Shown: positions 29,133 through 54,180, numbered from the stretch's first letter. The stretch: DNA of 64,000 nucleotides from an uncultured Planctomycetia bacterium (GCA_964433975.1 CAYSSS010000001.1:78257-142256), one strand, 5' to 3'. Numbers and translations: made by a program. Notes: generated by a model not told the origin, from the sequence alone.

Positions 29133-29134
29133 AG

Positions 29135-34371: not shown

Positions 34372-34402
34372 TGAATCCCGGACTAAAAAGAGAGGAAGGA
34401 AT

Positions 34403-35509
34403 ATGGAGAAAAAAGACTTAATTAATGTCATCGTTAAAGAAGGCACATCTATTAAGACGGCCATGAAGCAAATGGACTCCACGGGACTCAAGATACTCTT
34501 TGTAGTCGATTCATCAGGCAGTCTCATAGGTGCGATGACTGACGGGGATTTCCGCAGGTGGATCCTGGATGGTAAAAGTTGTAACGAGGACGTACGAAAC
34601 CCGTGCAACAAAAATCCAATAACATTTTCATCTGAAGATTATGACATAGAAAAGATAAAACAGATAATGATAAAGGAGAGATTGGAATGCGTCCCCATAA
34701 TTGACGGCAACCGGACGATTACGGACGCGCTTTTCCGGGAAGATGTTTTCGGGAATAAATATAAGAAGGCAAAGAAAGCGCTGACGGTCCCAGTTGCCAT
34801 AATGGCAGGCGGAGAGGGATCCAGGCTGTCACCCTTTACAAAGATATTGCCGAAACCTCTCATACCGTTAAACGAAAAGCCTATTGCAGAAGTTATCATG
34901 GACCGTTTTGCCGAATTTGGTTGCGACGAGTTTTATCTTCTTCTGGGATATAAGGGCGTGATGATACAGTCGTATTTTGACAATGCCAAGAGTGGCCATA
35001 AGCCCATATATATGTATGAGAAGGAGCCCAGCGGGACAGCGGGCTCGCTCAAGCTGCTGTCCGACAAGCTCTCGACCGACTCTCTTTTTGTTTCCAATTG
35101 CGACATCCTGATCGAGGCCGACTATGCTAATATGTATGAATCTCACCTGAAGAATAACTGCGACATAACCATAGTAGGGGCCATGAGGCATTTTGTCATT
35201 CCTTACGGCGTTATAGATATGGGACCAGGCGGTAATATAGGTAAGTTAATCGAAAAACCGGAGTACGATTTTCTTGTGAACACAGGAATGTATATATTGA
35301 ATAAAAACACACTTTCCTATATTCCTAAAAAAGGAAAGTTTGATTTTACGGAGCTTATTAAAAAAACGCGGGAAAAAGGCGGTAAGATCAGCGTGTATCC
35401 CGTCAGTGAAAAATCATGGTTAGATATAGGTCAGATTGAATTACTGGAGGAGGCTGTTTCGGGAACGCTTGGAGAGAAATGGAGCCGCATGAAAAGAGGG
35501 GCCGCATGA
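34403..35509 (+). CDS. CBS-domain-pair plus sugar-phosphate nucleotidyltransferase (PtmE-like).
   Basis: The N-terminus has paired CBS repeats. The nucleotidyltransferase motif is VAIMAGGEGSRLSPFTKILPKPL. Confidence 0.75.
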   Translation: MEKKDLINVIVKEGTSIKTAMKQMDSTGLKILFVVDSSGSLIGAMTDGDFRRWILDGKSCNEDVRNPCNKNPITFSSEDYDIEKIKQIMIKERLECVPIIDGNRTITDALFREDVFGNKYKKAKKALTVPVAIMAGGEGSRLSPFTKILPKPLIPLNEKPIAEVIMDRFAEFGCDEFYLLLGYKGVMIQSYFDNAKSGHKPIYMYEKEPSGTAGSLKLLSDKLSTDSLFVSNCDILIEADYANMYESHLKNNCDITIVGAMRHFVIPYGVIDMGPGGNIGKLIEKPEYDFLVNTGMYILNKNTLSYIPKKGKFDFTELIKKTREKGGKISVYPVSEKSWLDIGQIELLEEAVSGTLGEKWSRMKRGAA

Positions 35510-36231
35510 TCGAGAATAAAAAAATATTGGCCCTCATACCAGCCCGCGGCGGCTCAAAAGGGATTCCCGGAAAGAACATAAAGAACTTTAATGGAAAGCC
35601 TTTGATAGCCTGGACCATAGAAGAAGCTAAAAAGAGTAAATATCTGGATAAGATAGTGGTTAGCACCGACTCCGGCGCAATAGCCGATATCGCAGTTAAA
35701 TATGGCGCCGAAGCCCCTTTCATTAGGCCCGGAGGACTGGCAAGTGATAATGCCAATATGATGGATGTCGTTCTTCACTGCATCAATTTTTTTCAAGATA
35801 CAGGCGACAACTATGACATCATTGTTCTGCTCCAGCCCACTTCTCCGCTTAGAAGGGCGGATGATATTGACGGAGCAATTGAATTTTTCATTGAAAAAAA
35901 TGCGAATGCTGTCTTAGGCGTTGTAGCGTGTGACCACCCCCCGCAACTTGCAGGGATATTGCCGAAAGACTTAAGTATGAATAATTTTGTTCAGGGAAAT
36001 AGCGGGAATAAAAACCGCCAGGAACTGAGGGCCTATTACAGAGTCAATGGCGCGCTTTATTTAGCCGACATAGATTTCATTTTGCGTAAACGGGACTGGT
36101 ATGGAGCAAAAACATTTGCCTATATCATGAAAAAAGAACGCTCAGCGGATATAGACGATCTTTTCGATTTTATGTTAGCGGAATTCGTTATGAAGGCACA
36201 GGGTCCTCTAGGTATGGGGGATGGCTTATGA
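35506..36231 (+). CDS. CMP-nonulosonic acid synthetase (acylneuraminate cytidylyltransferase family, NeuA/LegF-like).
   Basis: ILALIPARGGSKGIPGKNIK motif. The ATGA overlap with the upstream stop puts the likely start at 35506, not at the track start 35479. Confidence 0.8.
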   Translation: MIENKKILALIPARGGSKGIPGKNIKNFNGKPLIAWTIEEAKKSKYLDKIVVSTDSGAIADIAVKYGAEAPFIRPGGLASDNANMMDVVLHCINFFQDTGDNYDIIVLLQPTSPLRRADDIDGAIEFFIEKNANAVLGVVACDHPPQLAGILPKDLSMNNFVQGNSGNKNRQELRAYYRVNGALYLADIDFILRKRDWYGAKTFAYIMKKERSADIDDLFDFMLAEFVMKAQGPLGMGDGL

Positions 36232-38075
36232 TCTTGGCAGTGATATCTGACATGGAGCAATATTGGTTATTGGCGGATGCGGTCCCCGACATAAAACAAG
36301 TGCGCATCTTGTGTGATAACCCGGGAATCCATGATTTTTTGGAGGAAAAGAGAATATCATTTGATGCTTTAGATGAAGAGATATTGCGGAAAGAATGGAA
36401 TTCTATAAATATGTGGGCTTGCGAAAAGGCGCTCCTATTTGATCTTTCGGCCGGCGACAGGTCTATTCTGAATGGCATAGAGCTTAACAAAGCCTTGAAC
36501 GCCTATTTTTCCTTTTATCTGGTCAGTTTTTTGAAAAATTATCTTTTTTCGATATACGTAATAGACCGGTATAAGCCGAGCGAAATGTTTATATTCGAGA
36601 ATATCCATTGTCCGCCATTCCCCGCTTTTAATGGAAATTATTTTTTAAATAGTTTCCTGAAAGGACTAGCCCAAAAGAACGGCATCAAGGTGAACCAGCT
36701 AAAGTGCGGTACGCGCAAAGAAGAGAAGGCGTCCATGAAAGACCGCCTCAGAGTATTATTGCAGAAATCCTATGGTGGATTACCGGTTGCGGTAGATAAG
36801 AAAAAGATACTTATTGCATGCGGAGATGCAGGCCATCTGGGCCCGGTTCTTAAAAAACTTAAATATAAGGAGAAAGATATATTTGTTTATAATGATGAAT
36901 TTCGTTTTGGCCAGCTCAAATCCTGCTTAAAGGAAAAGATGCACTATGTGATTTCCGATTCTTTCCTCAAAAAAAGCCGGCAAGTAGAAGACGGCCCTGA
37001 TCACAAGAAAGAGTTTACGGACATGATAAAGCATTTATGCGGCGATAAATGGTTCACCTACGAAGGATATGATTTAAATCGCCGTATAGAAAATGCCATC
37101 CTGGATAACATAAATCCATATATCGACAATGTCCGCCAATGGACACGGATATATTCTGAAATGGTAAATAAATTGGATGTCTGTGGGGTCATCATGAACC
37201 AGGACGAGATGCCGGACAGGGCGTTCATGGCAGCCTTTTTCAAGTCCCGGAAAATCCCCGTATTCTGTATTTCACACGGTTACGGCACCGTACGGTTTTC
37301 TTTACCTATTTCAAATCGACGCTTTGACCTTTCGTATACATTTCTGCATTCCGAGCTTGAAAAACATGTCTTTACATCCAGGGGCTGGGATGAAAAAAAT
37401 ATAAGGGTCATGGGTATACCCAGGTATGACAGGCTAATGAAACTAATGGATGAAAAAAACAGGAATAAAACAAAACCGGAAAGAATGAGGATCCTGTATT
37501 CCGGTGGAATGATGCCTTATTATACTCCCTCCGTACCCTCATGGATAGGTGTATGCAAATATTCATTTGGAACTACGATGAGGAGGGATTTGAAGTTTGT
37601 AATGAAGGCATTAGAAGGCTATCCGGTTGAACTTGTAATAAAACCGCGTTATCTTGTAGATGAGGGCCCGCTGGCAGATTTTGTTATGAAGCATAAGGGC
37701 AAAAGCAATGTCACCATAGCAAAAGCTAAAACGGATTTTTTTAAACTTTTATCGGGCTGTCAGGCCATATTTTTGGCGCACTGGTCGACCGCGGTCATGG
37801 AAGGGATCATCGCACGGATTCCCACGGTCGTCTTGAATTACAACGGGATAGAAGATGATTTTCCGTTCGCCGATCACGACCTGTGCACCGTTACCCGGGA
37901 TCCGCGTGAACTCAAAGATATAATAGCGGAAATATATTCGGCTTTTATTTCCGGCAAAAAGTCCGCTCATGCACCTGTTTTTGGCAAGGACAAGGCGTTC
38001 TATACGGGCATTAATGACAGCCTGAATACTGAAAGAGTGACGGACTGTATAATGGAGACGATTGGGGCAAGATGA
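36228..38075 (+). CDS. Hypothetical protein. Possible TagF/Capsule_synth-like (CDP/CMP-activated donor) transferase. Paralog of 39550-40836.
   Basis: 615 aa with no TM helices. The C-terminal region ...RILYSGGMMPYYTPS...ELVIKPRY parallels KILYICPNLE...LLIKPHPRY in the 39550 protein. Both resemble the ...LYAPT.R ... K.HP pattern of glycerophosphotransferase/KpsS-type enzymes. Confidence 0.3.
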   Translation: MILAVISDMEQYWLLADAVPDIKQVRILCDNPGIHDFLEEKRISFDALDEEILRKEWNSINMWACEKALLFDLSAGDRSILNGIELNKALNAYFSFYLVSFLKNYLFSIYVIDRYKPSEMFIFENIHCPPFPAFNGNYFLNSFLKGLAQKNGIKVNQLKCGTRKEEKASMKDRLRVLLQKSYGGLPVAVDKKKILIACGDAGHLGPVLKKLKYKEKDIFVYNDEFRFGQLKSCLKEKMHYVISDSFLKKSRQVEDGPDHKKEFTDMIKHLCGDKWFTYEGYDLNRRIENAILDNINPYIDNVRQWTRIYSEMVNKLDVCGVIMNQDEMPDRAFMAAFFKSRKIPVFCISHGYGTVRFSLPISNRRFDLSYTFLHSELEKHVFTSRGWDEKNIRVMGIPRYDRLMKLMDEKNRNKTKPERMRILYSGGMMPYYTPSVPSWIGVCKYSFGTTMRRDLKFVMKALEGYPVELVIKPRYLVDEGPLADFVMKHKGKSNVTIAKAKTDFFKLLSGCQAIFLAHWSTAVMEGIIARIPTVVLNYNGIEDDFPFADHDLCTVTRDPRELKDIIAEIYSAFISGKKSAHAPVFGKDKAFYTGINDSLNTERVTDCIMETIGAR

Positions 38076-39553
38076 CGCATAAGAAAAGGATAATAAAAGA
38101 CAGCTTCAATCTCACCTCTGCGCGATATGCGTCGCAGTTCATAGGTTTTTTTACTTCGATAGCCATGAAGAGATTCCTCGGCCCGTTTTATACGGGAATC
38201 TGGAGCCTGTTAAATATAATATCGGATAACGCCTCTTACTTATTATTGGGTATTGGCGAAGGAGTGTGCTACAAGATTCCGTTTTTGTTGGGAGAAAAAA
38301 AAGAACAGGAGGCGGAAGAGGTAAAGGACGTAGCTTTTAATTTTGTATTCGCGGTGTCATGCCTGACAAGCCTCGCGGTGCTGGTTGCGGCCGTAATATT
38401 ACGCCACAGATATCCTGTCGAAGTCATCGTGGGTCTTTGCGCCGTTTCCCTTTATATGCTGGTAGACAGGATATGCGGTTATTACATGACGCTTTTAAGG
38501 GCCAGGAAGAATTTTTCAGTATTAAGCCTTTCCATTATATTCGACGCCGTGGTCAATCTCTGCCTTGTCATATTGCTGGTAAAGAATTTCAGGATATACG
38601 GCCTCTACGCCGCACTGATAATACTGACCGTACTCAATGTAATCTTCGTGCACCTTTTTGTGCGCTACAGGCTTTGTTTTAATTTCAAGTTTAAAGGCGC
38701 CGGCGGCCTAATCAAGATCGGTTTTCCGTTGTCCTTTTTGGGTTTCCTGCAGGGTGTGGCGCCAATCCTGGATACGATAATGATAACAAAGATGATAGGC
38801 GTGACTTTCGTGGGGTATTACAGCGTATCGGTCATGACAAAAAATTATATATCCCAGCTCTCAAGCTTCGGCACCGTGTTATATCCCTGGCTACTGGAGA
38901 CTTTTGGCAGAAATCAGAGTATTGAAGACATAAAGAAGTACGCTATTATACCTCCGAAGGTCAATGCGTACCTGCTCCCGTTGTTATTGGGCTGGATATT
39001 CTTTATCGTGCCCGTTTTGATAAAGGCGGTGTTGCCTAAGTTCATACCCGGAATCCTTGCGATACAGATCCTTCTGATCGACATGTTTTTCCGCTCATGC
39101 TACCCCCAGGCCATGCATTTTCTTATTGCGTTAAAGAAGCAGACGAAGATGATGACGATCATGATACTGTCGATCATTTTGACGGCATTATTAAATTATG
39201 CGCTGATAAAGGCGGGGTACGGGATATACGGCGTAGCTTGCGCTGCGTCGGCGGTCTCTTTTATCATGTTCTTTTTAATGCAGACATATGCGATGCGCCA
39301 TTTTGCCGGCGGGAGGGAAATCGCCTTGTTTTTCTTAGAAGTAATAGCGCCTTTTTTATATACCACCCTGTTCGTATTGTTGATAGAGAATTTTATAAGG
39401 CTTCCCAATATGTATGTCAATGCCGCGGTTAAATGCTTCACTCTGTTTATCTTCTCAATACCGCTGCTTATATATATTGATAGCCGGACACAAGTTGTGC
39501 GCCTCGTGCTTGATATGGTAAAAGGCGCCATTTTGCGAAAGGCCGATCGATGA
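38072..39553 (+). CDS. Wzx-like oligosaccharide flippase (MOP superfamily polysaccharide biosynthesis protein).
   Basis: 493 aa with about 12-14 TM helices. The N-terminal region ...SFNLTSARYASQFIGFFTSIAMKRFLGPFYTGIW is typical of Wzx/PST family members. Confidence 0.6.
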   Translation: MTHKKRIIKDSFNLTSARYASQFIGFFTSIAMKRFLGPFYTGIWSLLNIISDNASYLLLGIGEGVCYKIPFLLGEKKEQEAEEVKDVAFNFVFAVSCLTSLAVLVAAVILRHRYPVEVIVGLCAVSLYMLVDRICGYYMTLLRARKNFSVLSLSIIFDAVVNLCLVILLVKNFRIYGLYAALIILTVLNVIFVHLFVRYRLCFNFKFKGAGGLIKIGFPLSFLGFLQGVAPILDTIMITKMIGVTFVGYYSVSVMTKNYISQLSSFGTVLYPWLLETFGRNQSIEDIKKYAIIPPKVNAYLLPLLLGWIFFIVPVLIKAVLPKFIPGILAIQILLIDMFFRSCYPQAMHFLIALKKQTKMMTIMILSIILTALLNYALIKAGYGIYGVACAASAVSFIMFFLMQTYAMRHFAGGREIALFFLEVIAPFLYTTLFVLLIENFIRLPNMYVNAAVKCFTLFIFSIPLLIYIDSRTQVVRLVLDMVKGAILRKADR

Positions 39554-40836
39554 AAGATGCGCCGCGATATGATGTGATTTTTTGGGGCCATATAAGCAAT
39601 GGAATCGAGAGGTGTCTCCCCTTGATGGTTAGTTTAAAAGAGAAGGGCCTGAAGCCGCTTTTGTTTTATCAAAATTATAATTTTAGAGACGGGCTCTCCG
39701 GGTTGCAGATCAGGATCGTCCAGGCATACGGCCTTGATGTCATGGATTATTCCCATTTCCTTAAACGCGACCTACTATTAAGAATCATAACTTTTTTTGT
39801 TAATATGTTCAAGCACACGGCCAGATGCATGTTTTTTTATAACAAGTTCATAGGGCTCCGCTCAAAATTACTGCAATTGCGTATTAATGAGGGTTTTATA
39901 GGGCGGATGCTCGGCGAATTAAGGCCGAGGATCGGTTTTTTTGATAATATTTCATTGATAGAATACTGCGCGTATCCTTATGGCAGCTACTATATAAAAA
40001 AAGTATCGGATAAAATGGGTATTAAGAGTTTTGATATCTTTAACGGCATGCCCAATCATCCGCTTAAACTTGAGAGAAAGTACATAGATTTTGACAGGTA
40101 TTATGTCCCGCATGAATATGAGAGGCAAAAATACTATGCCGAGCACATCGAAAGAGACGCACCTATACTTGTATTTGGAGATCCGCGTTTTGACACAAAC
40201 TGGAAGGAAAATATCAAAAGAATTTTCTCGGAAGATATCAGGGCCGGAATAAAACGGCTCGGCATCGGGTCCAAGAGAAAAATATTGTATATATGCCCGA
40301 ACCTTGAATGCATCGGGGGTGATTCCGAAAAATACAGGAATATCGCGGATGTTGCAAGGGCGGCGAAAGCATTAGGCAATACGGCGCTGCTTATCAAGCC
40401 CCACCCCAGATACCGCTATGAAGAGAAGATAAGGCTTGTTATGAAGAAGAATAGTTTTAAAGATTTCTTTATTTTAGAAGATGACCCGCTGATATGTTAT
40501 TTGGAGCACGTGGATTTTATAGTATCGTTGGCAACGGCCGCGTTCTTTGACCTTCTGCCGGAAGGCCATAAAAAGATAGTCATATATGACAGAGGCGATT
40601 TTTGCCAATCCACGACTCTTATAAATATATTCAAGGAGGGTTTTAATTATTTTACTGGATATGACGACTTCCTGGCTTTTTTGAACGGAAAGAACGCGGC
40701 AGGAAGCGCGCATCCGGATATTGAGGGATTCTGCAGACAATGGATAGCCGGCGGAAACGGGCTTGATACCGTGGTGGAAAACATGTCAAGCGATATTTTG
40801 AACGAGTTCGATAAATTGAGAAAGGGGCAAATATGA
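39550..40836 (+). CDS. Hypothetical protein. Possible TagF/Capsule_synth-like transferase with a K-P-H-P motif. Paralog of 36228-38075.
   Basis: 428 aa, soluble. It has LLIKPHPRY and ILVFGDPRFD motifs. I cannot confirm the family assignment. Confidence 0.3.
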   Translation: MKDAPRYDVIFWGHISNGIERCLPLMVSLKEKGLKPLLFYQNYNFRDGLSGLQIRIVQAYGLDVMDYSHFLKRDLLLRIITFFVNMFKHTARCMFFYNKFIGLRSKLLQLRINEGFIGRMLGELRPRIGFFDNISLIEYCAYPYGSYYIKKVSDKMGIKSFDIFNGMPNHPLKLERKYIDFDRYYVPHEYERQKYYAEHIERDAPILVFGDPRFDTNWKENIKRIFSEDIRAGIKRLGIGSKRKILYICPNLECIGGDSEKYRNIADVARAAKALGNTALLIKPHPRYRYEEKIRLVMKKNSFKDFFILEDDPLICYLEHVDFIVSLATAAFFDLLPEGHKKIVIYDRGDFCQSTTLINIFKEGFNYFTGYDDFLAFLNGKNAAGSAHPDIEGFCRQWIAGGNGLDTVVENMSSDILNEFDKLRKGQI

Positions 40837-41594
40837 ATTTAAAAAAGAAGCTTGCGGAAGGCAGCATGACGATTGGATCATGGATTACCCTGGGCGACTA
40901 TGCTGCGACGGAGATCATGGCAAAGGCCGGTTTCGACTGGCTTGTTATAGATATGGAGCACAGCGCTATAGAGCTGGAGCGGGCGCAGAATCTCATCAGG
41001 ATAATAGAGTTAAGCGGATGCGTGCCACTGGTCCGGGTTTCTGAAAACAACGCCAACATTATTAAGAGGGTTATGGATGCGGGTTCGCACGGAGTGATTG
41101 TACCTATGGTTAACAACAGAGAGGATGCGTTACGCGCGGTAAGCGCGGTAAAATATCCGCCCAGGGGGACGAGAGGCGTAGGGCTCGGCCGCGCCCAGAA
41201 TTACGGCCTGGACTTCGAAAAATATAACAGGTGGCAGGAGAAGAGCTCCGTAGTCATCGTCCAAATAGAGCATATAGATGCTGTAAATAATCTGGAGGAG
41301 ATACTCGAAGTAGAAGGTGTCGACGGTTTCATGATCGGCCCGTACGATCTGTCCGCTTCTTTAGGGAGGCCGGGCGGGTTTGGCCACACGGACTTTAAAA
41401 AGGCGCTTGCCAAGGTCACTGCCGTTTCCAGGCGCATCGACAAAGCCCGCGGCATTCATGTTGTCCAGCCCGACAGTATTGAGGTTGATAGAAGGATAAA
41501 GGAAGGATATAATTTCATCGTATTCAGCTTTGACGCGCTTTTTTTGGGCAGCTGCTGCGCAGACAAGCTTTCAAGGGTAAGGAGAAGAAAATAA
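40833..41594 (+). CDS. HpcH/HpaI-family class II pyruvate aldolase.
   Basis: GSWITLGDYAATEIMAKAGFDWLVIDMEHSAIE...VRV..........GSHGVIVPMV...ED.......KYPPRG.RG matches the HpcH/HpaI aldolase core. 253 aa. Confidence 0.75.
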   Translation: MNLKKKLAEGSMTIGSWITLGDYAATEIMAKAGFDWLVIDMEHSAIELERAQNLIRIIELSGCVPLVRVSENNANIIKRVMDAGSHGVIVPMVNNREDALRAVSAVKYPPRGTRGVGLGRAQNYGLDFEKYNRWQEKSSVVIVQIEHIDAVNNLEEILEVEGVDGFMIGPYDLSASLGRPGGFGHTDFKKALAKVTAVSRRIDKARGIHVVQPDSIEVDRRIKEGYNFIVFSFDALFLGSCCADKLSRVRRRK

Positions 41595-43090
41595 TGAAGG
41601 GTAGCGACTTTAAGGTATTGTTTATATATCCCAATGCAATGATGGCAACGCTCGTGCCGCTCAGCATATCATCGCTTTACGCGAGTCTTAAATCGAAAGG
41701 TTTCAATACGGATATATTTGATACCACGTATTACAAGACCGAAGATATAAGCTTTGAGCAGAGGAAGGTGGACCTTCTGATGGTAAAGCCGTTCAGTTTT
41801 AATGACCAGGGTATCAAAATAAAGGAAAATGATATCTATAAGGACCTCGCCAAGAAGGTCTCCGAGTATAGGCCTGATCTTATAGCTATTACGATAGTAC
41901 AGGACATGCAGGAGCTTTCCCAGTCGTTATTGGAAAGCATAAAGGATTTTGATATACCGGTTGTGGCCGGAGGGGTATTTGTGAGCCTTTCGCCGGAAGA
42001 GGTTATCGCTGATGAGAACATAGATATTATATGTATCGGAGAAGGCGAGGAGCCTTTGACGGAGCTTTGCAAAAAGATGTCAAAGGGCGAGGACTATTCC
42101 GGGATAAAGAACCTGTGGGTTAAGCAGCAAGGCAGGCTTATAAAGAATAGCTTAAGGCCCCTCATGGATATAAACAAGCTACCATTCATAGATTATGATA
42201 TATTCGACAAGGATCGCCTTTACAGGCCGATGTTCGGCAAGGTCTACACCATGATACACGTGGAACTGGACCGGGGATGCCCATACACGTGCACCTTTTG
42301 CTGCGCTCCGGCCCTGAAAGAGGTGTACCGCAGAAATAATTGCGGACAGTATTACCGACGCAAGTCCGTTGACCGGATAATGGCTGAGATGAGGCACCTT
42401 GTAAAAAAATACAAGCCCGATTATGTAAATTTCAATTCCGAGACGTTCCTGGCGAAGCCTATGTCGGAGCTTAGGGAGTTCGCCAAAAGATATAAGAAGA
42501 TAGCTGTGCCTTTCTGGTGCCAGACGCGACCTGAAACCGTGACCGAAGAGAAGATAAAATTATTAAAAGAGATGAACTGTAATAGCTTGCAATTCGGCAT
42601 AGAGGTAGGCAACGAAGAATTCAGGAACAGGGTCCTCAACCGCAAAGACACCAACAAGCAGATGCTGAAGGCCTTCAAGCTGGTAGAGAAGTATAAAATA
42701 CCATATACCGCGAACAATATAATAGGGTTCCCGGACGAGACGAGAGACCTGATCTTTGAGACGATAGAATTTAATCGTAAGATTAATCCGCGCACGATGA
42801 ACTGTAATATAATGGCGCCGTATAAAGGCACCACGATATACAAATGTTGCATGGACAAAGGATACCTTGACAAGGACAGCAAGGTGCACCAGGTAATAGA
42901 CGGGGCGGAGCTAAATATGGATTCCATAAGTTATAAGGAATTAAAGGGGCTTCAGAGAACGTTCGCGTTATACGCAAGATCCCCTAAAACAGAATGGCCG
43001 AAGATCAAGATAGCAGAAAATTTTGACGAGGAGGGCAATCGCATGTTCGAGGAATTAAAACAGGCATATCAGAAGAAATACTTTTCATGA
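41594..43090 (+). CDS. B12-binding-domain radical SAM enzyme.
   Basis: N-terminus MKGSDFKVLFIYPNAMMATLVPLSISSLYASLKSKGF (B12-binding domain). CxxxCxxC at LDRGCPYTCTFCCA. 498 aa. Confidence 0.8.
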   Translation: MKGSDFKVLFIYPNAMMATLVPLSISSLYASLKSKGFNTDIFDTTYYKTEDISFEQRKVDLLMVKPFSFNDQGIKIKENDIYKDLAKKVSEYRPDLIAITIVQDMQELSQSLLESIKDFDIPVVAGGVFVSLSPEEVIADENIDIICIGEGEEPLTELCKKMSKGEDYSGIKNLWVKQQGRLIKNSLRPLMDINKLPFIDYDIFDKDRLYRPMFGKVYTMIHVELDRGCPYTCTFCCAPALKEVYRRNNCGQYYRRKSVDRIMAEMRHLVKKYKPDYVNFNSETFLAKPMSELREFAKRYKKIAVPFWCQTRPETVTEEKIKLLKEMNCNSLQFGIEVGNEEFRNRVLNRKDTNKQMLKAFKLVEKYKIPYTANNIIGFPDETRDLIFETIEFNRKINPRTMNCNIMAPYKGTTIYKCCMDKGYLDKDSKVHQVIDGAELNMDSISYKELKGLQRTFALYARSPKTEWPKIKIAENFDEEGNRMFEELKQAYQKKYFS

Positions 43091-43824
43091 CCATGAAATT
43101 CAACGCAGAATCTTTAAAAAACAGGCTTAAATCTTATTTGTCGGACGTGATAAAAAAGATAAGGATAATCCACAGGCTGGATTATGATAAATATCCCATA
43201 TATCTGCATGACAATATAAGGTTGGGCGCCTGCGGGAAAGAACCGGATACGGTAAAATGGATAGAAAGTTTTGATAAAAGCGATACAGCCTTTGACATAG
43301 GCGCCAACATAGGCGCGTATTCGTTGATAATGGGGAAATATGCGAAGATGGTTTTTGCCTTTGAGCCATCAGTATTTACATTCAGTACTCTGGTTAAAAA
43401 CATATATACAAATACAGCTTCGAATGTCATGCCGGTCAACATGGCGTTATCGGAACGTAAAAAAATAGGGGAATTTGCTTATTCATCAATTGATTTAGGA
43501 AGTTCCGTGCATGGTTTAGACGTGAAATTAGAAAAAGAGGCGCATAGACAAAAAATCTTATCCTATAGCATAGACGATTTTATTACCGATTTTGGCATAG
43601 AGAGCCCAAATCATATTAAACTTGATGTCGATGGCAATGAATTTGACATATTAAAAGGCGCGGCCAAAACCATCTCAACCAAGGCCTTTAAGTCTTTAAT
43701 GGTAGAAGCGGATGACAAGAGAAAAGATATGTTCGATTTTCTAGAGTCGCTAGGTCTTAAGCAGAAAGCCAAATATCATATCGGCGACGCGGGCATGTAT
43801 AACTGTCTTTTTGTAAGGGGATGA
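43087..43824 (+). CDS. FkbM-family SAM-dependent methyltransferase. Paralog of 25808-26539.
   Basis: AFDIGANIGAYSLIMGKYAK motif. The N-terminus (NAESLKNRLKSYLSDVIKKIRI) parallels the 25808 protein. Confidence 0.75.
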   Translation: MTMKFNAESLKNRLKSYLSDVIKKIRIIHRLDYDKYPIYLHDNIRLGACGKEPDTVKWIESFDKSDTAFDIGANIGAYSLIMGKYAKMVFAFEPSVFTFSTLVKNIYTNTASNVMPVNMALSERKKIGEFAYSSIDLGSSVHGLDVKLEKEAHRQKILSYSIDDFITDFGIESPNHIKLDVDGNEFDILKGAAKTISTKAFKSLMVEADDKRKDMFDFLESLGLKQKAKYHIGDAGMYNCLFVRG

Positions 43825-43828
43825 CATT

Positions 43829-44596
43829 ATGAGGATCATAGGTATTGTACCTGCAAGGATGGCATCGACGAGATTTCCGGGCAAACCGCTTGCCAAAATA
43901 CTCGGCAAGCCCATGATAGAGCATGTCTATTCGAGGAGCATGCTTTGCAAAAAATTGAACTTTGTTTACATAGCTACTCCGGATAAAGAAATACAAGACT
44001 ACTGCAAAAATAACAATATGAATGTTGTAATGACTCGCGATACCCACGAGAGGGCATCGGACAGGGCTGCCGAGGCAGTGCTCAAGATAGAAAAAAAAAG
44101 CGGAAAAAAAATAGAAATAGTCGTCATGATACAGGGCGACGAGCCGATGCTGCAGTATGAGATGATAGATAGGGTTATAAGGCCCATGATAAGCGATAGA
44201 AGTATCAACGCGGTTAATCTGACGGCGCCGCTGAAATCTAAACAGGAGCAGAACGACCCCAACCAGGTCAAAGTAGTCGTGGATAAAAAAGGTTTCGCGC
44301 TCTATTTTTCAAGAGAGCCGATCCCATCGCGGAAGAAGGGCGCCAAGGATGTGCCGATGCAAAGACAGATAGGCCTTATTGCTTTCAGAAGAGATTTTCT
44401 TATAAAGTTCAATGAACTTGCCCCAACACCGCTCGAAAAGATAGAATCAGTTGATATGCTCAGGATATTGGAGCACGGGTACAGGCTCAAGATGGTACCC
44501 GGCGCGTTTAATGCCTATGGCGTGGACACACCGCAAGACTTAAAAAAAGTGGAGCGATTGATGAAAGCTGAGGTGAGAAGCAATGCGCAAAAATAA
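43829..44596 (+). CDS. kdsB: 3-deoxy-manno-octulosonate cytidylyltransferase (CMP-Kdo synthetase family).
   Basis: MRIIGIVPARMASTRFPGKPLAKILGKPMIEHV...IQGDEPM...VKVVVDKKGFALYFSREPIP...GVDTPQDL aligns motif for motif with KdsB. Confidence 0.85.
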   Translation: MRIIGIVPARMASTRFPGKPLAKILGKPMIEHVYSRSMLCKKLNFVYIATPDKEIQDYCKNNNMNVVMTRDTHERASDRAAEAVLKIEKKSGKKIEIVVMIQGDEPMLQYEMIDRVIRPMISDRSINAVNLTAPLKSKQEQNDPNQVKVVVDKKGFALYFSREPIPSRKKGAKDVPMQRQIGLIAFRRDFLIKFNELAPTPLEKIESVDMLRILEHGYRLKMVPGAFNAYGVDTPQDLKKVERLMKAEVRSNAQK

Positions 44597-45635
44597 GATC
44601 TTACGTGTAGGTATAGCGGGATATGGAGTAGTGGGCCAGCGCCGCAGGCAATTTATCGATGCGCACCCAAATTTGCGCACGCAGGCTGTTTGTGACCAAA
44701 AGTTCGGCAAGTCGTATGTTATGCCGGACGGCGTTAAATGCTTCAACAATTACAAGGAACTGCTGGAGGAAGAGCTTGACGTGCTGTTTGTATCCCTGCC
44801 CAATTATTTAGCCGCTGATGTGACCATTGCCGGATTAGAAAAAGGATTGAATGTATTCTGCGAAAAACCTCCGGGCCGGGACGTGGCCGATATAGAGAGA
44901 GTGATAAAAGTTGAAAAGAAGCACCCTCGCCAGGTGTTAAAATACGGGTTTAATCACCGTTATCACTATTCCGTACGTGATGCTTTAAAGATGGCAAGAT
45001 CCGGAGAACTTGGGGAGATCGTTAATCTGCGCGGGGTATACGGCAAAAGCAAGATTCATCATTTTTCCGGCCCCGGAGCCTGGCGCGCGGAGAGAAAATA
45101 CGCGGGCGGAGGCATATTACTTGATCAGGGCATTCATATGGTGGATCTGATGCGGCTATTTTGCGGAGATTTCAAGGAAGTTAAAAGCTTTATATCGAAT
45201 AAACACTGGAACCATGATGTAGAGGATAATGCATATTCTATCATGTGTGATGATAAGGGCCGCATAGCCATGCTGCATTCAAGCGCGACGCAATGGCAGC
45301 ACAAGTTTAATCTGCACATAGCGCTTACTCAAGGTTATCTTGAGCTGCGCGGCATACTTTCAGGTTCTAAAAGTTACGGCGAGGAGAAGCTTGCCATAGG
45401 CAGGCGAATAGATGAGTCAGATGTGGGTAGCTTGCACGAAGAGGTTGTATCTTATTTTGAAGATGACTCTTGGCGTGATGAAATTAATGAGTTCGTGGAT
45501 ATTATAATTAACGGAGGCAGGATAAAGCACGGCGGAAGCGCCGATGCTCTTGAGACCATGAAGCTGGTCTACCGCATATATTACGCCGATCAGAAATGGC
45601 GCAAGAGCTATAATATTGTTGATCCTGATAAATAA
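44583..45635 (+). CDS. Gfo/Idh/MocA-family NAD(P)-dependent oxidoreductase.
   Basis: LRVGIAGYGVVGQRR Rossmann N-terminus, with a C-terminal alpha/beta domain typical of the family. Confidence 0.75.
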   Translation: MRKNKILRVGIAGYGVVGQRRRQFIDAHPNLRTQAVCDQKFGKSYVMPDGVKCFNNYKELLEEELDVLFVSLPNYLAADVTIAGLEKGLNVFCEKPPGRDVADIERVIKVEKKHPRQVLKYGFNHRYHYSVRDALKMARSGELGEIVNLRGVYGKSKIHHFSGPGAWRAERKYAGGGILLDQGIHMVDLMRLFCGDFKEVKSFISNKHWNHDVEDNAYSIMCDDKGRIAMLHSSATQWQHKFNLHIALTQGYLELRGILSGSKSYGEEKLAIGRRIDESDVGSLHEEVVSYFEDDSWRDEINEFVDIIINGGRIKHGGSADALETMKLVYRIYYADQKWRKSYNIVDPDK

Positions 45636-45658
45636 GCAGCAAGAACACGAGGAGAATC

Positions 45659-46270
45659 ATGGAAAATATAGAAAAGATTTTTAAAAACTCAGCAGATATA
45701 CAACAATTTAGCAAAGGTTATTTCAGGTACCTCTGTGGATTGATGAACTGTATCGATACAAAACAGATTGAAAGTGTTGTCAGCGAATTTAGCAAGGCGC
45801 AAAAAAATCGGAATACGGTTTTTTTTATTGGAAACGGCGGTTCGGCATCTACCGCTTCACACATGGCCAATGATTTTGGATTAGGCACGCGAAAGGACGA
45901 GAAGCTGCCTTTTCGCGCCATATCTCTTACCGACAATGTCGCGTCTATGACCGCTATTGCTAATGATTGTAGTTACGACGATATTTTTATCAGACAGCTT
46001 AATCTCTATTTTAAGAAAGGTGATAAGCTGGTGGCTATCTCGGCAAGCGGCAATTCACTAAATGTGGTAAATGCCGCCAATTGGGTCAAGAAACGTGGCG
46101 GAAAGGTCATAGGCCTTGTCGGTTTTGACGGAGGAAAATTAAAAAAGATAAGCGACGTTTGCATACATGTAAAAACACCCAGAGGCGAATACGGCCCCGT
46201 TGAGGACATCCATATGATAATGGATCACCTTATATACACGTGGCTATGGTTTAAAAAACGAAAAGGATAA
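45659..46270 (+). CDS. SIS-domain sugar-phosphate isomerase, GmhA-like (sedoheptulose-7-phosphate isomerase family).
   Basis: FFIGNGGSASTASHMANDF...ISASGNS...VIGLVGFDGGKL...VEDIHMIMDH parallels E. coli GmhA motifs. Confidence 0.75.
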   Translation: MENIEKIFKNSADIQQFSKGYFRYLCGLMNCIDTKQIESVVSEFSKAQKNRNTVFFIGNGGSASTASHMANDFGLGTRKDEKLPFRAISLTDNVASMTAIANDCSYDDIFIRQLNLYFKKGDKLVAISASGNSLNVVNAANWVKKRGGKVIGLVGFDGGKLKKISDVCIHVKTPRGEYGPVEDIHMIMDHLIYTWLWFKKRKG

Positions 46271-46277
46271 AGCCGGG

Positions 46278-47201
46278 ATGAAGTCTCTTTGCGGAGAAAA
46301 TATACTCATAAGCACCTCTTCATTTGCCGCTTCTGACAAAGGGCCGCTGGAGATGCTTAAAGAGGCGGGCTGTGAAGTGATAAACAACCCCTATAAACGA
46401 AAGCTTACAAAGCCCGAGTTAACCGAGTTATTATCGAATAGTGTAACGGGCCTGATAGCAGGATTAGAAATTTTAGACAAAGAGGTGCTGTCTAAGTCTA
46501 AATTAAAGATTATATCCAGATGCGGTTCCGGGTTGTCTAATGTAGATATTGAGGCCGCCAAGGAACTGGGGATCATTGTATGTTCGACTCCGGATGCTCC
46601 GGTGGATTCAGTTGCCGAGCTTACGCTGGCAGCCATGCTGAGCCTTTTAAGAGCGATGCCCGCCATGGACAGAGAGCTTCATGATGGCAGATGGACCAAG
46701 CGAACAGGTCTTTTACTGGAAGGTAAAACCGTGGCGATCATAGGCTTTGGGCGTATCGGTAAAAAGTTGAGTCAGCTATTAGCGCCTTTTAAGGTCAGGC
46801 TATTGGTAGTAGATCCGTCTATAAAGAGCGGAGATGTTAAAACGGTTACTGTATCGCTTGAAAAAGCATTGTCAGAAGCCGATATTATCAGCATACATTC
46901 CAGCGGTAATGCTTGCCTGATGGGCGAAAGCGAATTGCGGAAAATAAAAAAAGGCGCATTTATTCTTAACGCGGCACGTGGTGGAGCTATAAATGAAGAC
47001 GCCCTCGTAAAGGCGCTGGAAGAAAAACGCGTTGCCGGGGCATGGCTTGACGTATTTGAAGAAGAGCCGTATATGGGGCCGCTGACAAAATATCCTCAAG
47101 TCATACTTACACCGCACGCGGGTTCGTACACGGTTGAGTGCAGAAAGCAGATGGAGATGGAAGCGGTCAAAAACCTTATCGGGGCTTTAAGGAAATATTA
47201 A
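46278..47201 (+). CDS. D-isomer-specific 2-hydroxyacid dehydrogenase (NAD-binding).
   Basis: GKTVAIIGFGRIGKKLSQLL NAD-binding motif and the catalytic R/E/H region ...ARGG...TPHAGSYT. Confidence 0.8.
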   Translation: MKSLCGENILISTSSFAASDKGPLEMLKEAGCEVINNPYKRKLTKPELTELLSNSVTGLIAGLEILDKEVLSKSKLKIISRCGSGLSNVDIEAAKELGIIVCSTPDAPVDSVAELTLAAMLSLLRAMPAMDRELHDGRWTKRTGLLLEGKTVAIIGFGRIGKKLSQLLAPFKVRLLVVDPSIKSGDVKTVTVSLEKALSEADIISIHSSGNACLMGESELRKIKKGAFILNAARGGAINEDALVKALEEKRVAGAWLDVFEEEPYMGPLTKYPQVILTPHAGSYTVECRKQMEMEAVKNLIGALRKY

Positions 47202-47968
47202 TGGCCAGGGAAATGCGTGAGTTAGAGAAATTGTTATTTGTTGCTGAAAAAGCGGCATGCCGCGCCGGCGCGTTCTTATCCCGGACGAAAATAAAAGATA
47301 ATAAAATACTGACCGATCTTGGAAAAGACGTAAAGATTTCCGCTGATCTACATTCGGAAAAGATCATCATAAATATGTTAAGAGCTAAATCTGAATTTGA
47401 TATTCTTACGGAGGAGAGCGGGTTTCTGCCGGGAGCTTCCGGAAAGCATTTACTTTGGATCGTTGACCCGATTGACGGAACGATGAATTTTTTACGCGGG
47501 ATCCCGATAAACTGCGTTTCTATAGGGCTATGGAGAGGCAATGAGCCTTTGCTCGGGGTAATTTATGACTTCAATAAAAATGAACTTTTTTCCGGCATAG
47601 CCCGTAAAATCGCGTACTTGAACAAAAAACGTATAAAAGTGAGCGCTCTTTCCAAAGAAGCCAGCGCCGTACTTTGCACGGGTTTTCCGGTAAATACAGA
47701 TTTTTCATCGAGAGGGCTATTAAGATTTACAAAGCAAATCCAAAACTATAAAAAGGTCCGGCTGATCGGGTCCGCTGCTTTGTCGCTCGCCTATGTTGCG
47801 GCGGGTAGAGCTGATGTTTATCGTGAAAACAATATAATGCTCTGGGATGTTGCCGCCGGCGCAGCAATTATTACCGGGGCCGGCGGAAATGTTCAGATGC
47901 TGCCTTTGGCAAAAGAAAATGCTTTTTCGGTATACGCTTCTAATAGGCGGTTATTCAGGCAGAGGTAA
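47201..47968 (+). CDS. Inositol-monophosphatase-family sugar phosphatase.
   Basis: WIVDPIDGTMNFLRGIP and ...WD.AAG motifs. The start was moved to the ATG at 47201, which overlaps the upstream stop (TAATG). Confidence 0.75.
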   Translation: MAREMRELEKLLFVAEKAACRAGAFLSRTKIKDNKILTDLGKDVKISADLHSEKIIINMLRAKSEFDILTEESGFLPGASGKHLLWIVDPIDGTMNFLRGIPINCVSIGLWRGNEPLLGVIYDFNKNELFSGIARKIAYLNKKRIKVSALSKEASAVLCTGFPVNTDFSSRGLLRFTKQIQNYKKVRLIGSAALSLAYVAAGRADVYRENNIMLWDVAAGAAIITGAGGNVQMLPLAKENAFSVYASNRRLFRQR

Positions 47969-47971
47969 AGA

Positions 47972-48766
47972 ATGGTCGTTCAAAGGGAACTGTATAAAAA
48001 GATAGAATCGAATACAAAGAAATCCTGGGAGCTCAACTGGAGCAGGGTGGACCAGAAGTCCATTACCGAAATATTTGATTACCCGAGGGTCAGAAAGCTC
48101 GCGGCGGACTATCTTAGATATCTGCCCAGAGAGGGGATCGCTCTGGAGGCAGGTTGCGGGCTGGGGCAATGGATGGAATATTTTCGCTCCAATGGTTACA
48201 ACATGGTAGGAGTGGATTACAATGAAGCTACTATCTTTCAGGCGAAGAGTTATGGTGCCGGCCTCTCTTTGGCTACCGCCGATGTGAGGGCATTGCCGTT
48301 TAAGAACGAAAGTGTTGATACGTATATCTCCTTTGGAGTGATCGAGCATTTTATAGAAGGCCCTGAGGTGGCGTTAAGCGAGGCGTACAGGGTGCTGAAA
48401 AAAGGCGGGACAGCACTTATAACGGTCCCCCACAGAAACATCTTCACCGTTATCAAAAGTCCGGTAGAGTGGCTGAAGAGATCTTCTCTTTTAAGAAGGA
48501 TCTTTTCAAAAGAAAAAAGGATATATTATTATCAGAAATATTTTGAGCCGAAGAGATTGATGGCAAAATTCCGGGATGCGGGGTATGAGGTAATGCTACA
48601 TAAGCCGGTAGACCACACATTCTCTTTGGTGGAATTTTCAGGTATCTTCAGGGATAAAAAGACGTATGACGGTGAAAATGCTTTTGCTGTAAAGTTAGGT
48701 GGCGTGCTGGAAAAATTTTTCCCGCATATGTGCGCCGGAAGTAACTTATTTGTCCTTAAAAAGTAG
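47972..48766 (+). CDS. Class I SAM-dependent methyltransferase.
   Basis: LEAGCGLGQWMEYF (motif I), ...VDTYISFGVIEHF (motif II) and LKKGGTALITVP (motif III). Confidence 0.75.
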   Translation: MVVQRELYKKIESNTKKSWELNWSRVDQKSITEIFDYPRVRKLAADYLRYLPREGIALEAGCGLGQWMEYFRSNGYNMVGVDYNEATIFQAKSYGAGLSLATADVRALPFKNESVDTYISFGVIEHFIEGPEVALSEAYRVLKKGGTALITVPHRNIFTVIKSPVEWLKRSSLLRRIFSKEKRIYYYQKYFEPKRLMAKFRDAGYEVMLHKPVDHTFSLVEFSGIFRDKKTYDGENAFAVKLGGVLEKFFPHMCAGSNLFVLKK

Positions 48767-51559: not shown

Positions 51560-52684
51560 ATGAGGATATTTTCTGTTACAATGGCGCCGATAAGCCCTCC
51601 TTATGACGACGGGCCGAAGAATATTGTGATGGCGCTGGCGAAAAAACTGCCCATGCACGATTATTATTTTGTTTCATCGCGCAAACGAAGCTTTCCGCAC
51701 ACAGCTAATACCATATTTATCAAATCCCCTTTTCAAAGAACAGGGCGGCACAGCATGGCGTTATTTCAAAAAATTTATATATTCTTCCTGACCGTTCTTT
51801 ACAAGAGCAGGATGGACCTCTTCCAGTTCTTCTTTACGCCGCAGCCATATTTTTCGTTTATCTTCAGAAGGCTCCTAAAGAATAAGAGGTCAATACAGAT
51901 AGTCTCATCGATACATACATTATTGGAAAAAAATGGAGAGGACGCGATCGGCTCTCTCTTCTTTTCGGATTATGTAGTGGTGCATTCCGAATATGCCAGG
52001 CAAAAACTTGCCGAAAAGAATGTAAAGAATATAGTAAAGATCTATCCGGCCATAGAAGAAGAGCGTTTTAACGGCGTAACGGCGCCGGATTCCTGCGGAG
52101 AGGTAAGAATAGTATACCCGGGGACATATAAAGTGCTGGCCGATGCTTATTCGCTGGGGGATTTCTGTAAAATAGCTCTGCGCGTGAAAGACGAGGTAAG
52201 CAACGCGAGGTTTGTTATGGCCTGCCGGATAAGGACAAGGGAAGACTCAGGTCTTGAGAAGAGATTCAAGTCGCTGGTAAGAGAATGCGGTCTTGAGAGA
52301 TCGTTTACTTTTCTTAATACCATAGACGAGATGCCGTCATTTTTAAAAGGATGCTCCATTGGTATAATGCCGGCCAGGCGTCCGATGAGCGGTATACTGG
52401 AGATTCCACTCGTTCTGCTCGAACTCGCGATCCTCGGTAAGCCGGTAGTCTACGGGAACGTTCCGCCGCTTGGGGAACTTGACAGCAGGGGGCTGGGCAT
52501 AATGGTATCCGATGATTCGTGCGAATCTTACGCTAAAGCGATTATAAAGTGCGTCAACGACGGCGGTTATGCTTCGATGGTTGGCGAAAGGTCAAGGAAT
52601 GCCGTAAGGGTGGATTTCACAATAGATATCGCCGCAGGCGAGTATCAACGATTATATAAAGTACTTCAGGATAAAGATGAATAG
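51560..52684 (+). CDS. GT4-like glycosyltransferase (GT-B fold).
   Basis: The C-terminal region GIMPARRPMSGILEIPLVLLELAILGKPVVYGNV...GIMVSDDS resembles the GT4 donor-binding domain. Confidence 0.55.
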   Translation: MRIFSVTMAPISPPYDDGPKNIVMALAKKLPMHDYYFVSSRKRSFPHTANTIFIKSPFQRTGRHSMALFQKIYIFFLTVLYKSRMDLFQFFFTPQPYFSFIFRRLLKNKRSIQIVSSIHTLLEKNGEDAIGSLFFSDYVVVHSEYARQKLAEKNVKNIVKIYPAIEEERFNGVTAPDSCGEVRIVYPGTYKVLADAYSLGDFCKIALRVKDEVSNARFVMACRIRTREDSGLEKRFKSLVRECGLERSFTFLNTIDEMPSFLKGCSIGIMPARRPMSGILEIPLVLLELAILGKPVVYGNVPPLGELDSRGLGIMVSDDSCESYAKAIIKCVNDGGYASMVGERSRNAVRVDFTIDIAAGEYQRLYKVLQDKDE

Positions 52685-54179: not shown

Positions 54180-54180
54180 T

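Follow-up and report, generated by a model that had tools for sequence, protein, structure and literature searches.

A recurrent aldolase and KdsB-like cytidylyltransferase gene pair suggests a KdsA-independent route to activated acidic sugars

The subject of this study is a segment of DNA (40833-47968) from an uncultured Planctomycetia bacterium in which a gene for an HpcH/HpaI class II aldolase is followed, after two intervening genes, by a gene for a KdsB-type cytidine triphosphate (CTP):ulosonate cytidylyltransferase. The segment lies within a stretch of 64,000 nucleotides (GCA_964433975.1, CAYSSS010000001.1:78257-142256), here called the window, which is essentially a single glycan-biosynthesis operon on the + strand; coordinates are counted from its first nucleotide. 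All genes of the segment are on the + strand with starts and stops that overlap or nearly abut, and are translationally coupled. The original prediction made for this DNA held that the segment could build a modified, possibly methylated, heptulosonic or octulosonic acid by means of a pyruvate aldolase in place of KdsA, the phosphoenolpyruvate (PEP) dependent synthase of the 3-deoxy-D-manno-oct-2-ulosonate (Kdo) pathway, and then activate it as a cytidine monophosphate (CMP) sugar. The gene set behind this proposal was reproduced by Pfam and NCBIfam assignments, and is given here with the two genes that flank it.

39550-40836, + strand: soluble protein of 428 aa with a GT-B (glycosyltransferase type B) fold and a KPHPRY motif
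40833-41594, + strand: HpcH/HpaI class II aldolase (PF03328, E = 1.2e-36)
41594-43090, + strand: B12-binding radical S-adenosylmethionine (SAM) enzyme (Pfam PF02310 and PF04055)
43087-43824, + strand: FkbM-family SAM methyltransferase (PF05050, TIGR01444)
43829-44596, + strand: KdsB-type CTP:ulosonate cytidylyltransferase (PF02348, E = 4.5e-51; NF009905; TIGR00466)
44583-45635, + strand: Gfo/Idh/MocA NAD(P) oxidoreductase (Pfam)
45659-46270, + strand: GmhA-like SIS protein of 203 aa (TIGR00441, 114.5 bits, under the cutoff of 209.45)
46278-47201, + strand: D-2-hydroxyacid dehydrogenase resembling phosphoglycerate dehydrogenase (PGDH) (TIGR01327, 210 bits, under the cutoff of 454)
47201-47968, + strand: inositol monophosphatase (IMPase) family phosphatase (PF00459, E = 5.9e-47), with an open reading frame (ORF) callable from a GTG at 47138
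47972-48766, + strand: class I SAM methyltransferase (PF08241, E = 3.9e-20)

When called from the GTG codon at 47138, the IMPase ORF overlaps the dehydrogenase gene by 64 nucleotides. An in-frame ATG is present at 47201, and the true start is likely this codon, which would overlap the dehydrogenase stop codon in a TAATG arrangement.

KdsA (DAHP_synth_1), KdsC and KdsD (SIS with CBS) were not detected among the ORFs of the window that were scanned against Pfam, namely all + strand ORFs of at least 150 aa and one short-chain dehydrogenase/reductase (SDR) on the - strand (63105-63983), with short antisense ORFs nested in + strand genes and a single fragment at the window edge left out. A tblastn search of the window using E. 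coli KdsA as the query also gave no match at E ≤ 0.01. The absence of KdsA and KdsD from the window that the original prediction had noted is confirmed, and KdsC was likewise not found there.

The aldolase family and its cytidylyltransferase partner

The aldolase scores well above the cutoff of PF03328 (126.5 bits, cutoff 25) and under the NCBIfam equivalog cutoffs for HpaI (191 versus 369), GarL (171–178 versus 393–407) and RhmA (161 versus 441). Its nearest proteins are 59–89% identical. Across the family, the median pairwise identity is 58% with a minimum of 46%, while identity to E. coli YfaU or GarL is 33–38%, as compared to 44% between YfaU and GarL. Among 77 family members, the catalytic and metal-binding residues H49, R74, Q151, E153 and D179 (YfaU numbering) are invariant or nearly so. 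Three polar residues around the active site are specific to the family: S154H (74/77), A178Y (77/77) and L216H (77/77). As a lead only, the equivalents of A178 and L216 are presumed to line the aldehyde pocket in HpaI structures. Judged by these scores and residues, the aldolase is a member of the HpcH superfamily outside the characterised orthologue groups, and is not an orthologue of HpaI, GarL or RhmA. Set against YfaU, HpaI and GarL, a comparison raised by the original prediction, it falls in a distinct family with no more than 38% identity to YfaU or GarL.

The catabolic HpcH aldolases (HpaI, GarL, YfaU/RhmA) have the same fold as the aldolase, and the His, Arg, Gln, Glu and Asp of catalysis are shared as well. 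The differences lie in overall identity, in the A178Y/L216H/S154H pocket, and in a setting of glycan biosynthesis instead of catabolism. The substrates of GarL and YfaU are 2-keto-3-deoxy sugar acids, the same chemical class as the product that is proposed below.

A collection with one genome per species contained at least 575 aldolase loci. Among the best 80, the bacterial loci came from Omnitrophota, Patescibacteria/Saccharibacteria/Nealsonbacteria, Dehalococcoidia, Planctomycetota (anammox lineages included), Desulfobacterota, Nitrospirota, Elusimicrobia and Firmicutes. Seven archaeal metagenome-assembled genomes (MAGs) were also represented, belonging to Hadarchaeia, Thermoplasmata, Methanomicrobiales and Methanoperedens. 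The nearest locus to the window among these 80 is from an Omnitrophica MAG (L003) and has the same gene order, with cassette genes that are 78–92% identical and an aldolase that is 80% identical. As a general rule, the candidate phyla radiation (CPR), Dehalococcoidia, Firmicutes and Archaea are without a Kdo/lipopolysaccharide (LPS) pathway.

For an analysis of gene neighborhoods, ORFs were called in 77 loci and clustered, and the recurrent clusters were annotated. Loci with at least 7 kb on each side of the aldolase are termed full loci (n = 45). The locus counts, and the Fisher test described below, are uncorrected for relatedness and the loci are not phylogenetically independent. A CTP_transf_3 cytidylyltransferase is encoded on the same strand as the aldolase and within 7 kb of it in 45/45 full loci. 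A KdsB-like enzyme is present in 33 of these and a PseF/NeuA-like enzyme in 22, with some loci having both. The aldolase directly adjoins KdsB in 30 loci. One or more methyltransferases, sometimes together with a B12-binding radical SAM enzyme or another gene, are inserted between the two in 14 loci, and an acetyltransferase is inserted in two loci. A B12-binding radical SAM enzyme is found near the aldolase in only 13 of the 45 full loci.

The linkage was also tested in the reverse direction. Metagenome loci were fetched by means of LExxESVDM, a motif of the KdsB-like clade, and were counted if at least 2.5 kb of upstream DNA was available. An HpcH aldolase was present in 28 of these 35 loci, mostly immediately upstream. 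With tblastn, no KdsA match was obtained in 82 genome loci or 80 metagenome loci (approximately 160 related loci).

From the linkage in both directions, the pairing of the aldolase gene with one for a CMP-forming cytidylyltransferase is nearly obligate in bacteria and archaea alike. By the same comparison of gene order, this pair is the conserved unit, and the B12-binding radical SAM enzyme and FkbM methyltransferase are variable tailoring inserted between its two members. The original prediction had grouped KdsB with the accessory enzymes and set the aldolase nearby, followed by the B12-binding radical SAM/FkbM pair. All of these genes are present, but the conserved unit is narrower than that grouping. 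Its suggestion that the product may be methylated agrees with how commonly methyltransferases are inserted between aldolase and KdsB. The B12-binding radical SAM enzyme is probably a C-methyltransferase.

The KdsB-like protein of the window passes three KdsB models: NF009905 (297.9, cutoff 255), NF003952 (285, cutoff 193) and TIGR00466 (173.2, cutoff 155.2). The nearest solved structure is KpsU (PDB: 1GQ9), and the protein is approximately 40% identical to KpsU and KdsB. In an alignment of 52 KdsB-like members from the cassettes to E. coli KdsB, R10, R15, K19, Q98, D100, R157, R213 and D235 are invariant, including the residues that bind CTP and Mg2+ (R10, R15, K19, Q98, D100 and D235; 52/52). 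The sugar pocket is altered by the changes H181Q (52/52), Y185I/M (49/52), E210-Q211 to D-M (51/52) and S74R (49/52). The S74-G75 position reads R-A in the clade, and each of the pocket sites is replaced in 49–52 of the 52 members; by comparison, H, Y, EQ and SG are retained there in all of the five best solved KdsB/KpsU structures. In a complex of E. coli KdsB, the C5 hydroxyl of Kdo is hydrogen-bonded by Q98 and Y185, and H181 is an active-site residue (PMC12199768).

Since the Kdo-pocket residues are replaced and the CTP/Mg2+ residues are kept, the chemistry, transfer of CMP to the hydroxyl of an alpha-carboxy hemiketal, appears to be conserved, whereas the sugar itself is very probably other than Kdo. 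An additional anionic group on the sugar, together with positions that are deoxy or methylated, could be the reason for the new arginine and for a pocket that has become more hydrophobic. The original prediction had described the protein as a clear CMP-Kdo synthetase homolog. At the level of family models this description stands; as a statement about the product it probably does not.

Accessory enzymes and cassette variants

The genes that accompany the conserved pair occur in three combinations that can replace one another.

V1 (the window): Gfo/Idh/MocA (Gfo) oxidoreductase, GmhA-like SIS protein and IMPase
V2: Gfo oxidoreductase, SIS protein, FabG-like SDR and an enzyme resembling dehydroquinate synthase (DHQS), without a phosphatase
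V3 (commonest): GalE-like extended SDR and a HAD phosphatase, joined in some cassettes by a PF04199 'cyclase' hydrolase

The Gfo oxidoreductase is 59–74% identical in related cassettes and co-occurs with the SIS protein plus either IMPase or the DHQS-like enzyme. Both Gfo and SIS are missing from the HAD variant in 20 full loci. When aligned to PDB entry 5I01, the SIS protein keeps the ISxSGNS phosphate loop, H61 and H180, and differs by E65D and Q172E; E65, Q172 and H180 are catalytic/Zn residues of GmhA. It has no CBS domain and no match to a KdsD model. Thus, the GmhA likeness put forward in the original prediction is retained, although the protein misses the GmhA equivalog cutoff and departs from GmhA at those two residues.

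A gene for the dehydrogenase occurs in 38/45 full loci and accompanies V1, V2 and V3 alike. The nearest solved structure is P. horikoshii PGDH (PDB: 1WWK, 187 bits), and the protein also resembles glyoxylate/hydroxypyruvate reductases. The catalytic residues R240, E269 and H292 are kept; the anion site of SerA (R60-S61-R62) is replaced by I-A-G. The idea of a bona fide PGDH that yields 3-phosphohydroxypyruvate is weakened by the absence of these SerA arginines. A phosphate-removing enzyme was found in 33/45 full loci and, in related loci, always directly after the dehydrogenase. The two co-vary, with a phosphate-removing enzyme in 33/38 loci that have the dehydrogenase and in 0/7 loci that do not (Fisher p = 1.7e-5, uncorrected for relatedness).

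In six loci (L012, L013, L025, L028, L031 and L038; e.g. L025:7545-8603), a DHQS-like enzyme and a FabG-like SDR take the place of IMPase. For the DHQS-like enzyme of V2, the matching model is TIGR04425 ('AroB-related putative sugar phosphate phospholyase'), with 440 bits (cutoff 400). Because a DHQS-type phospholyase and a reductase can stand in for the phosphatase, the phosphorylated intermediate would be one with a sugar-phosphate tail. The exchange hints that the DHQS-like variant cassettes make an omega-deoxy or a carbocyclic/cyclised sugar analogue.

In a minimal form, six loci hold only the aldolase, the cytidylyltransferase (KdsB) and an SDR, with neither dehydrogenase nor phosphatase. 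A Pfam search of the neighboring genes in these minimal loci identified tailoring enzymes only and gave no pointer to the aldol acceptor. Acuticoccus sp. I52.16.1, a cultured organism, has a minimal V3 cassette of five genes (L085) on a plasmid of 97 kb (NZ_CP094833.1 40686-45138). It encodes the aldolase, a NeuA-family cytidylyltransferase, the PGDH-like dehydrogenase, a HAD hydrolase and an NAD(P) oxidoreductase (SDR). The aldolase (WP_244782418.1) has the Y178/H216 signature, and the cassette sits inside an exopolysaccharide region. Hydrosulfovibrio ferrireducens CB1MN is another carrier that is in culture.

Two other assignments were considered for the cassette. Phosphonate biosynthesis, which arose from PhpK-like matches of the radical SAM enzyme, was rejected since a PEP mutase is missing and the residues of the aldolase are those of a pyruvate aldolase. 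A role for the SIS protein and SDR as the PtmF/PtmA of a GDP-GlcNAc legionaminic acid route is not favored since cassettes with SIS and Gfo occur without NeuB or an aminotransferase.

A proposed aldolase route and its alternatives

The segment is best explained as one form of a cassette that moves horizontally and directs the biosynthesis of an acidic sugar in nucleotide-activated form. With moderate confidence, the aldolase is proposed to be a 2-ulosonic acid synthase, the product of which is activated as a CMP-sugar by the cytidylyltransferase. Confidence in any specific identity for the sugar is much lower. The chemical steps that follow are each inferred from what was observed, namely gene content, conservation of catalytic residues, linkage and the altered KdsB pocket.

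According to this proposal, the aldolase would bind a 2-oxo acid at its Mg2+ site, the donor being most simply pyruvate and possibly hydroxypyruvate. The enolate would add to a polar aldehyde, which could be an aldose or its phosphate, and the 4-hydroxy-2-oxo acid so formed would be a 2-ulosonic acid. The aldol step would replace PEP-dependent KdsA or NeuB. In the KdsB-type enzyme, the anomeric C2 hydroxyl would then attack CTP to give the CMP-sugar, and the release of pyrophosphate would pull the reversible aldol step forward. The SIS protein, Gfo and IMPase most likely produce the aldose partner, in free or modified form, from a ketose phosphate, or else dephosphorylate the aldol product in the manner of KdsC. 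The D-2-hydroxyacid dehydrogenase may supply the 2-oxo acid donor or tailor the product. The B12-binding radical SAM enzyme, FkbM and class I methyltransferases would methylate the sugar. Finally, a CMP-donor transferase, for which the GT-B protein at 39550-40836 is a candidate, would place the sugar into a glycan beside the legionaminic-acid-type sugar that is encoded upstream.

The aldolase-route acid with CMP activation put forward in the original prediction is supported by the linkage in both directions and by the absence of KdsA from the related loci, with a heptulosonic or octulosonic acid as a possible product.

The proposed route may be compared to the canonical CMP-Kdo pathway (KdsD, KdsA, KdsC, KdsB). 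Both have a sugar-phosphate isomerase, condensation of a C3 unit with an aldose to a 2-ulosonic acid, a phosphatase, and activation with CTP by a KdsB-family enzyme. The components differ at each step that precedes activation. The canonical pathway uses PEP-dependent KdsA (PF00793), whereas the cassette has a class II pyruvate aldolase (PF03328); the isomerase KdsD is a SIS domain with two CBS domains, whereas that of the cassette is GmhA-like without CBS; and the phosphatase KdsC is of the HAD-IIIA type, whereas that of the window is of the IMPase type. The cassette also has two extra oxidoreductases and a remodelled sugar pocket in KdsB, and it occurs in organisms that, as a rule, lack LPS. 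By contrast, a Kdo island that was taken up by B. coahuilensis, a Gram-positive, does carry canonical kdsA, kdsC, kdsD and kdsB (PMC4744853).

The NeuB/LegI/PseI plus NeuA/LegF/PseF pathways also join a free aldose to a C3 unit and then activate the product with CMP. The likeness extends to the cytidylyltransferase, since about one third of the cassettes use a PseF/NeuA-like enzyme instead of KdsB, and to the Maf/MptE-like transferases (users of CMP-nonulosonate donors) that are present in several cassettes. For Maf and Kdo, a preprint describes promiscuous transfer in E. coli only. Unlike these nonulosonic pathways, the cassette lacks its own NeuB-family synthase, as well as an aminotransferase and an N-acetyltransferase of its own. 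A NeuB gene lies within 7 kb of the aldolase in 6/45 full loci and is not found within that distance in the other 39.

A precedent for coupling the two reactions exists in chemoenzymatic practice, where NanA is combined with CMP-sialate synthetase such that a reversible pyruvate aldolase and activation by CTP can together lead to net formation of a CMP-ulosonic acid. NanA belongs to the DapA family, uses a Schiff base (class I) and is catabolic in vivo, whereas the cassette aldolase is a metal enzyme of class II and appears to be dedicated to biosynthesis. In the open-access full text that was searched, no description was found of an HpcH aldolase paired with a KdsB or NeuA cytidylyltransferase.

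Several points weigh against the proposed route. Pyruvate aldolases are thermodynamically poor synthases, and none is known to serve an anabolic glycan pathway. The main gap is the dehydrogenase which, while near-universal, is without a necessary role in the simple scheme. Its co-variation with the phosphate-removing enzyme hints at a sub-pathway.

The alternative that fares best is itself considered unlikely. The dehydrogenase and phosphatase would make hydroxypyruvate from D-glycerate or a phospho-acid, and the aldolase product would be a 3-hydroxy-2-ulosonic acid (Ko-like) that is then CMP-activated. Consistent with this are the frequency of the dehydrogenase, its position directly next to the phosphatase, the co-variation of the two, and its resemblance to glyoxylate/hydroxypyruvate reductases. 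The solved structures of the HpcH family include a 'hydroxyketoacid aldolase' (PDB: 6R62), and the altered KdsB pocket fits a substrate other than Kdo. Hydroxypyruvate serves as a donor for some HpcH-family enzymes. However, the arginines of the PGDH phosphate site are absent from the dehydrogenase. Furthermore, the DHQS-like phospholyase of V2 needs a sugar-phosphate tail and cannot act on 3-phosphohydroxypyruvate, and the six minimal loci have the aldolase, KdsB and SDR only.

A second alternative, which is improbable, dispenses with the aldol condensation and forms the acid by oxidation of an aldonate. Here, the SIS protein would convert a ketose phosphate to an aldose phosphate, Gfo would oxidise it to an aldonate phosphate, the dehydrogenase would produce a 2-keto-aldonate phosphate, and IMPase would release the free 2-ulosonic acid, with a logic like that of Epd/PdxB or KguD. 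In this scheme the aldolase would be left with a subsidiary function, for instance editing of the chain or epimerisation through retro-aldol/aldol reactions. The scheme has the merit that each accessory enzyme performs chemistry typical of its family on a phosphorylated intermediate. It also agrees with the phosphate loop kept in the SIS protein, with the phosphate-removing enzyme that always follows the dehydrogenase, and with the DHQS-like replacement (TIGR04425, 440 bits), a type of enzyme that naturally acts on 2-ulosonate omega-phosphates such as 3-deoxy-D-arabino-heptulosonate 7-phosphate (DAHP). Its weakness is that the most conserved gene, the aldolase, is left without a necessary function. 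The six cassettes with aldolase, cytidylyltransferase and SDR are without dehydrogenase or phosphatase, and the HAD variant of 20 full loci is without SIS and Gfo.

Thirdly, the aldolase and dehydrogenase might make a small non-sugar hydroxy-acid substituent, for instance a 2,4-dihydroxy acid or a glycerate-like acyl group, that decorates a legionaminic-acid-type sugar or another residue. This is judged to have little likelihood, as is the accompanying idea that the cytidylyltransferase activates something else, or a phospho-acid for phosphodiester transfer by a TagF-like protein. An aldolase pairs naturally with a 2-oxoacid reductase that follows it, NeuB-type genes are near some cassettes (within 7 kb in 6/45), a weakly TagF-like protein is encoded upstream of the aldolase, and N-glyceroyl nonulosonates are known (PMC5378307). 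Most cassettes, including the one on the Acuticoccus plasmid, have no NeuB nearby. The cytidylyltransferase is always of the KdsB or NeuA/PseF type with a full catalytic set for ulosonate activation, and the cassettes contain no conserved acyl-activating or acyl-transfer enzyme.

Lastly, a coincidence in which a housekeeping CMP-Kdo synthetase for LPS and a catabolic HpcH enzyme fell by chance into one operon would suit the two NCBIfam KdsB models that the KdsB-like protein passes and a host that is probably a diderm Omnitrophota relative (the cassette genes being 78–92% identical to those of the Omnitrophica locus), but it is very improbable and already largely refuted by linkage in both directions across phyla (archaea and monoderms included), the replaced Kdo-contact residues of KdsB, an aldolase that is under all catabolic equivalog cutoffs with its own pocket signature, and translational coupling within a glycan operon.

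Returning to the aldolase as a 2-ulosonic acid synthase, a broader and more tentative claim may be made. It is possible that the cassette family makes a class of CMP-activated acidic sugars not described before, neither Kdo nor nonulosonic acids, by way of a PEP-independent class II aldolase and with 3-hydroxy, omega-deoxy and carbocyclic sub-variants as further possibilities, and that these sugars decorate the cell surface in many uncultured lineages, among them CPR, Omnitrophota, Dehalococcoidia, anammox bacteria, Thermoplasmata, Hadarchaeia and Methanoperedens.

To our knowledge, all characterised routes to CMP-ulosonic acids (Kdo, sialic, legionaminic and pseudaminic acids, and Kdn, ketodeoxynonulosonic acid) use PEP-dependent synthases of the KdsA or NeuB type. 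If the aldolase proposal is true, a dedicated pyruvate-aldolase route would be a third and independent way to form the ulosonic acid bond. Genome surveys that count NeuB and KdsA would miss widespread acidic surface sugars, especially in uncultured bacteria and archaea, and the 'KdsB' genes of archaea, CPR and Gram-positive MAGs would no longer serve as markers of LPS. New aldolases and cytidylyltransferases would also become available for the chemoenzymatic synthesis of sugar acids. The five-gene plasmid version in a cultured marine bacterium, Acuticoccus sp. I52.16.1, makes the aldolase route directly testable.

The surrounding glycan operon

The gene for the 428-aa GT-B protein overlaps the start of the aldolase gene. 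The protein has 25 detectable homologues, some of which are annotated as PF04464; its own match to this TagF-family model is weak and below the cutoff (E = 0.0027). An AlphaFold2 model (pLDDT = 88.5) presents a generic GT-B fold for which UDP-GlcNAc 2-epimerases/NeuC score slightly above TarL, Bcs3 and TagF. From the model, it may be either a CMP-donor transferase (TagF-like) or a sugar-releasing, NeuC-like hydrolysing epimerase. The protein was found near the cassette in only 4/77 loci and is not a conserved part of it.

Further upstream of the cassette are proteins of approximately 612–615 aa, in the window (36228-38075) and in three other loci (L053:7966-9804, L056:8063-9910 and L002:4072-5910). 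They have either no Pfam match or a weak match to Epimerase_2 and do not cluster together at 30% identity. Possibly, they are large GT-B transferases for CMP-sugars.

The region 27061-36231 encodes a complete legionaminic-acid-type set with its own NeuB (29731-30738) and its own CMP-synthetase, followed by a Wzx-like flippase. The set is composed of an SDR dehydratase, a DegT aminotransferase, a PglD-like acetyltransferase, NeuB, a hydrolysing 2-epimerase, a CBS-NTP transferase (PtmE-like) and the CMP-synthetase. In the same region there is a HisF-HisH fusion and a 385-aa partner without a Pfam match which may form an acetimidoyl group.

Downstream of the cassette are genes for a methyltransferase and for glycosyltransferases of families 2 (GT2) and 4 (GT4). 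The order methyltransferase-GT2-GT4-methyltransferase is shared with a Patescibacteria locus (L002), and the class I methyltransferase at 47972-48766, being syntenic with the downstream GT2/GT4 genes, is probably a tailoring enzyme. Across the window there are four genes for B12-binding radical SAM enzymes (7488-8795, 21230-22804, 23525-25576 and 41594-43090) and two for FkbM methyltransferases (25808-26539 and 43087-43824), which suggests unusually heavy C- and O-methylation of the glycan.

Seven membrane proteins of the GT-C type are encoded at 5752-7491, 12099-13508, 13505-14929, 15642-17363, 17360-19534, 19538-21205 and 55738-57306. Five are PMT_2, one is YfhO and one is GT87-like. They are interleaved with small GT2 genes in a manner that resembles repeated pairs of polyprenyl-phosphate-sugar synthase and transferase.

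An RtcB RNA-ligase homologue (PF01139, E = 1.6e-82) and a thymidylate-kinase-like protein are encoded at 52677-54801 inside the glycan operon. Both are on the same strand as the neighboring glycosyltransferase and LPG_synthase_TM genes and overlap them, an odd place for an RNA repair enzyme. At 58941-62176, a 632-aa protein with weak matches to HAD/NIF-type phosphatase cores (E approximately 1e-4) may be FkbH-like. The next protein, of 374 aa, has a weak GNAT match, and the pair might add an acyl (glyceryl-type) decoration. Finally, a papain-family C1 cysteine peptidase (PF00112, E = 1.1e-22) and a carbamoyltransferase are encoded at 3366-5765, adjoining a Wzy_C O-antigen ligase-like protein.

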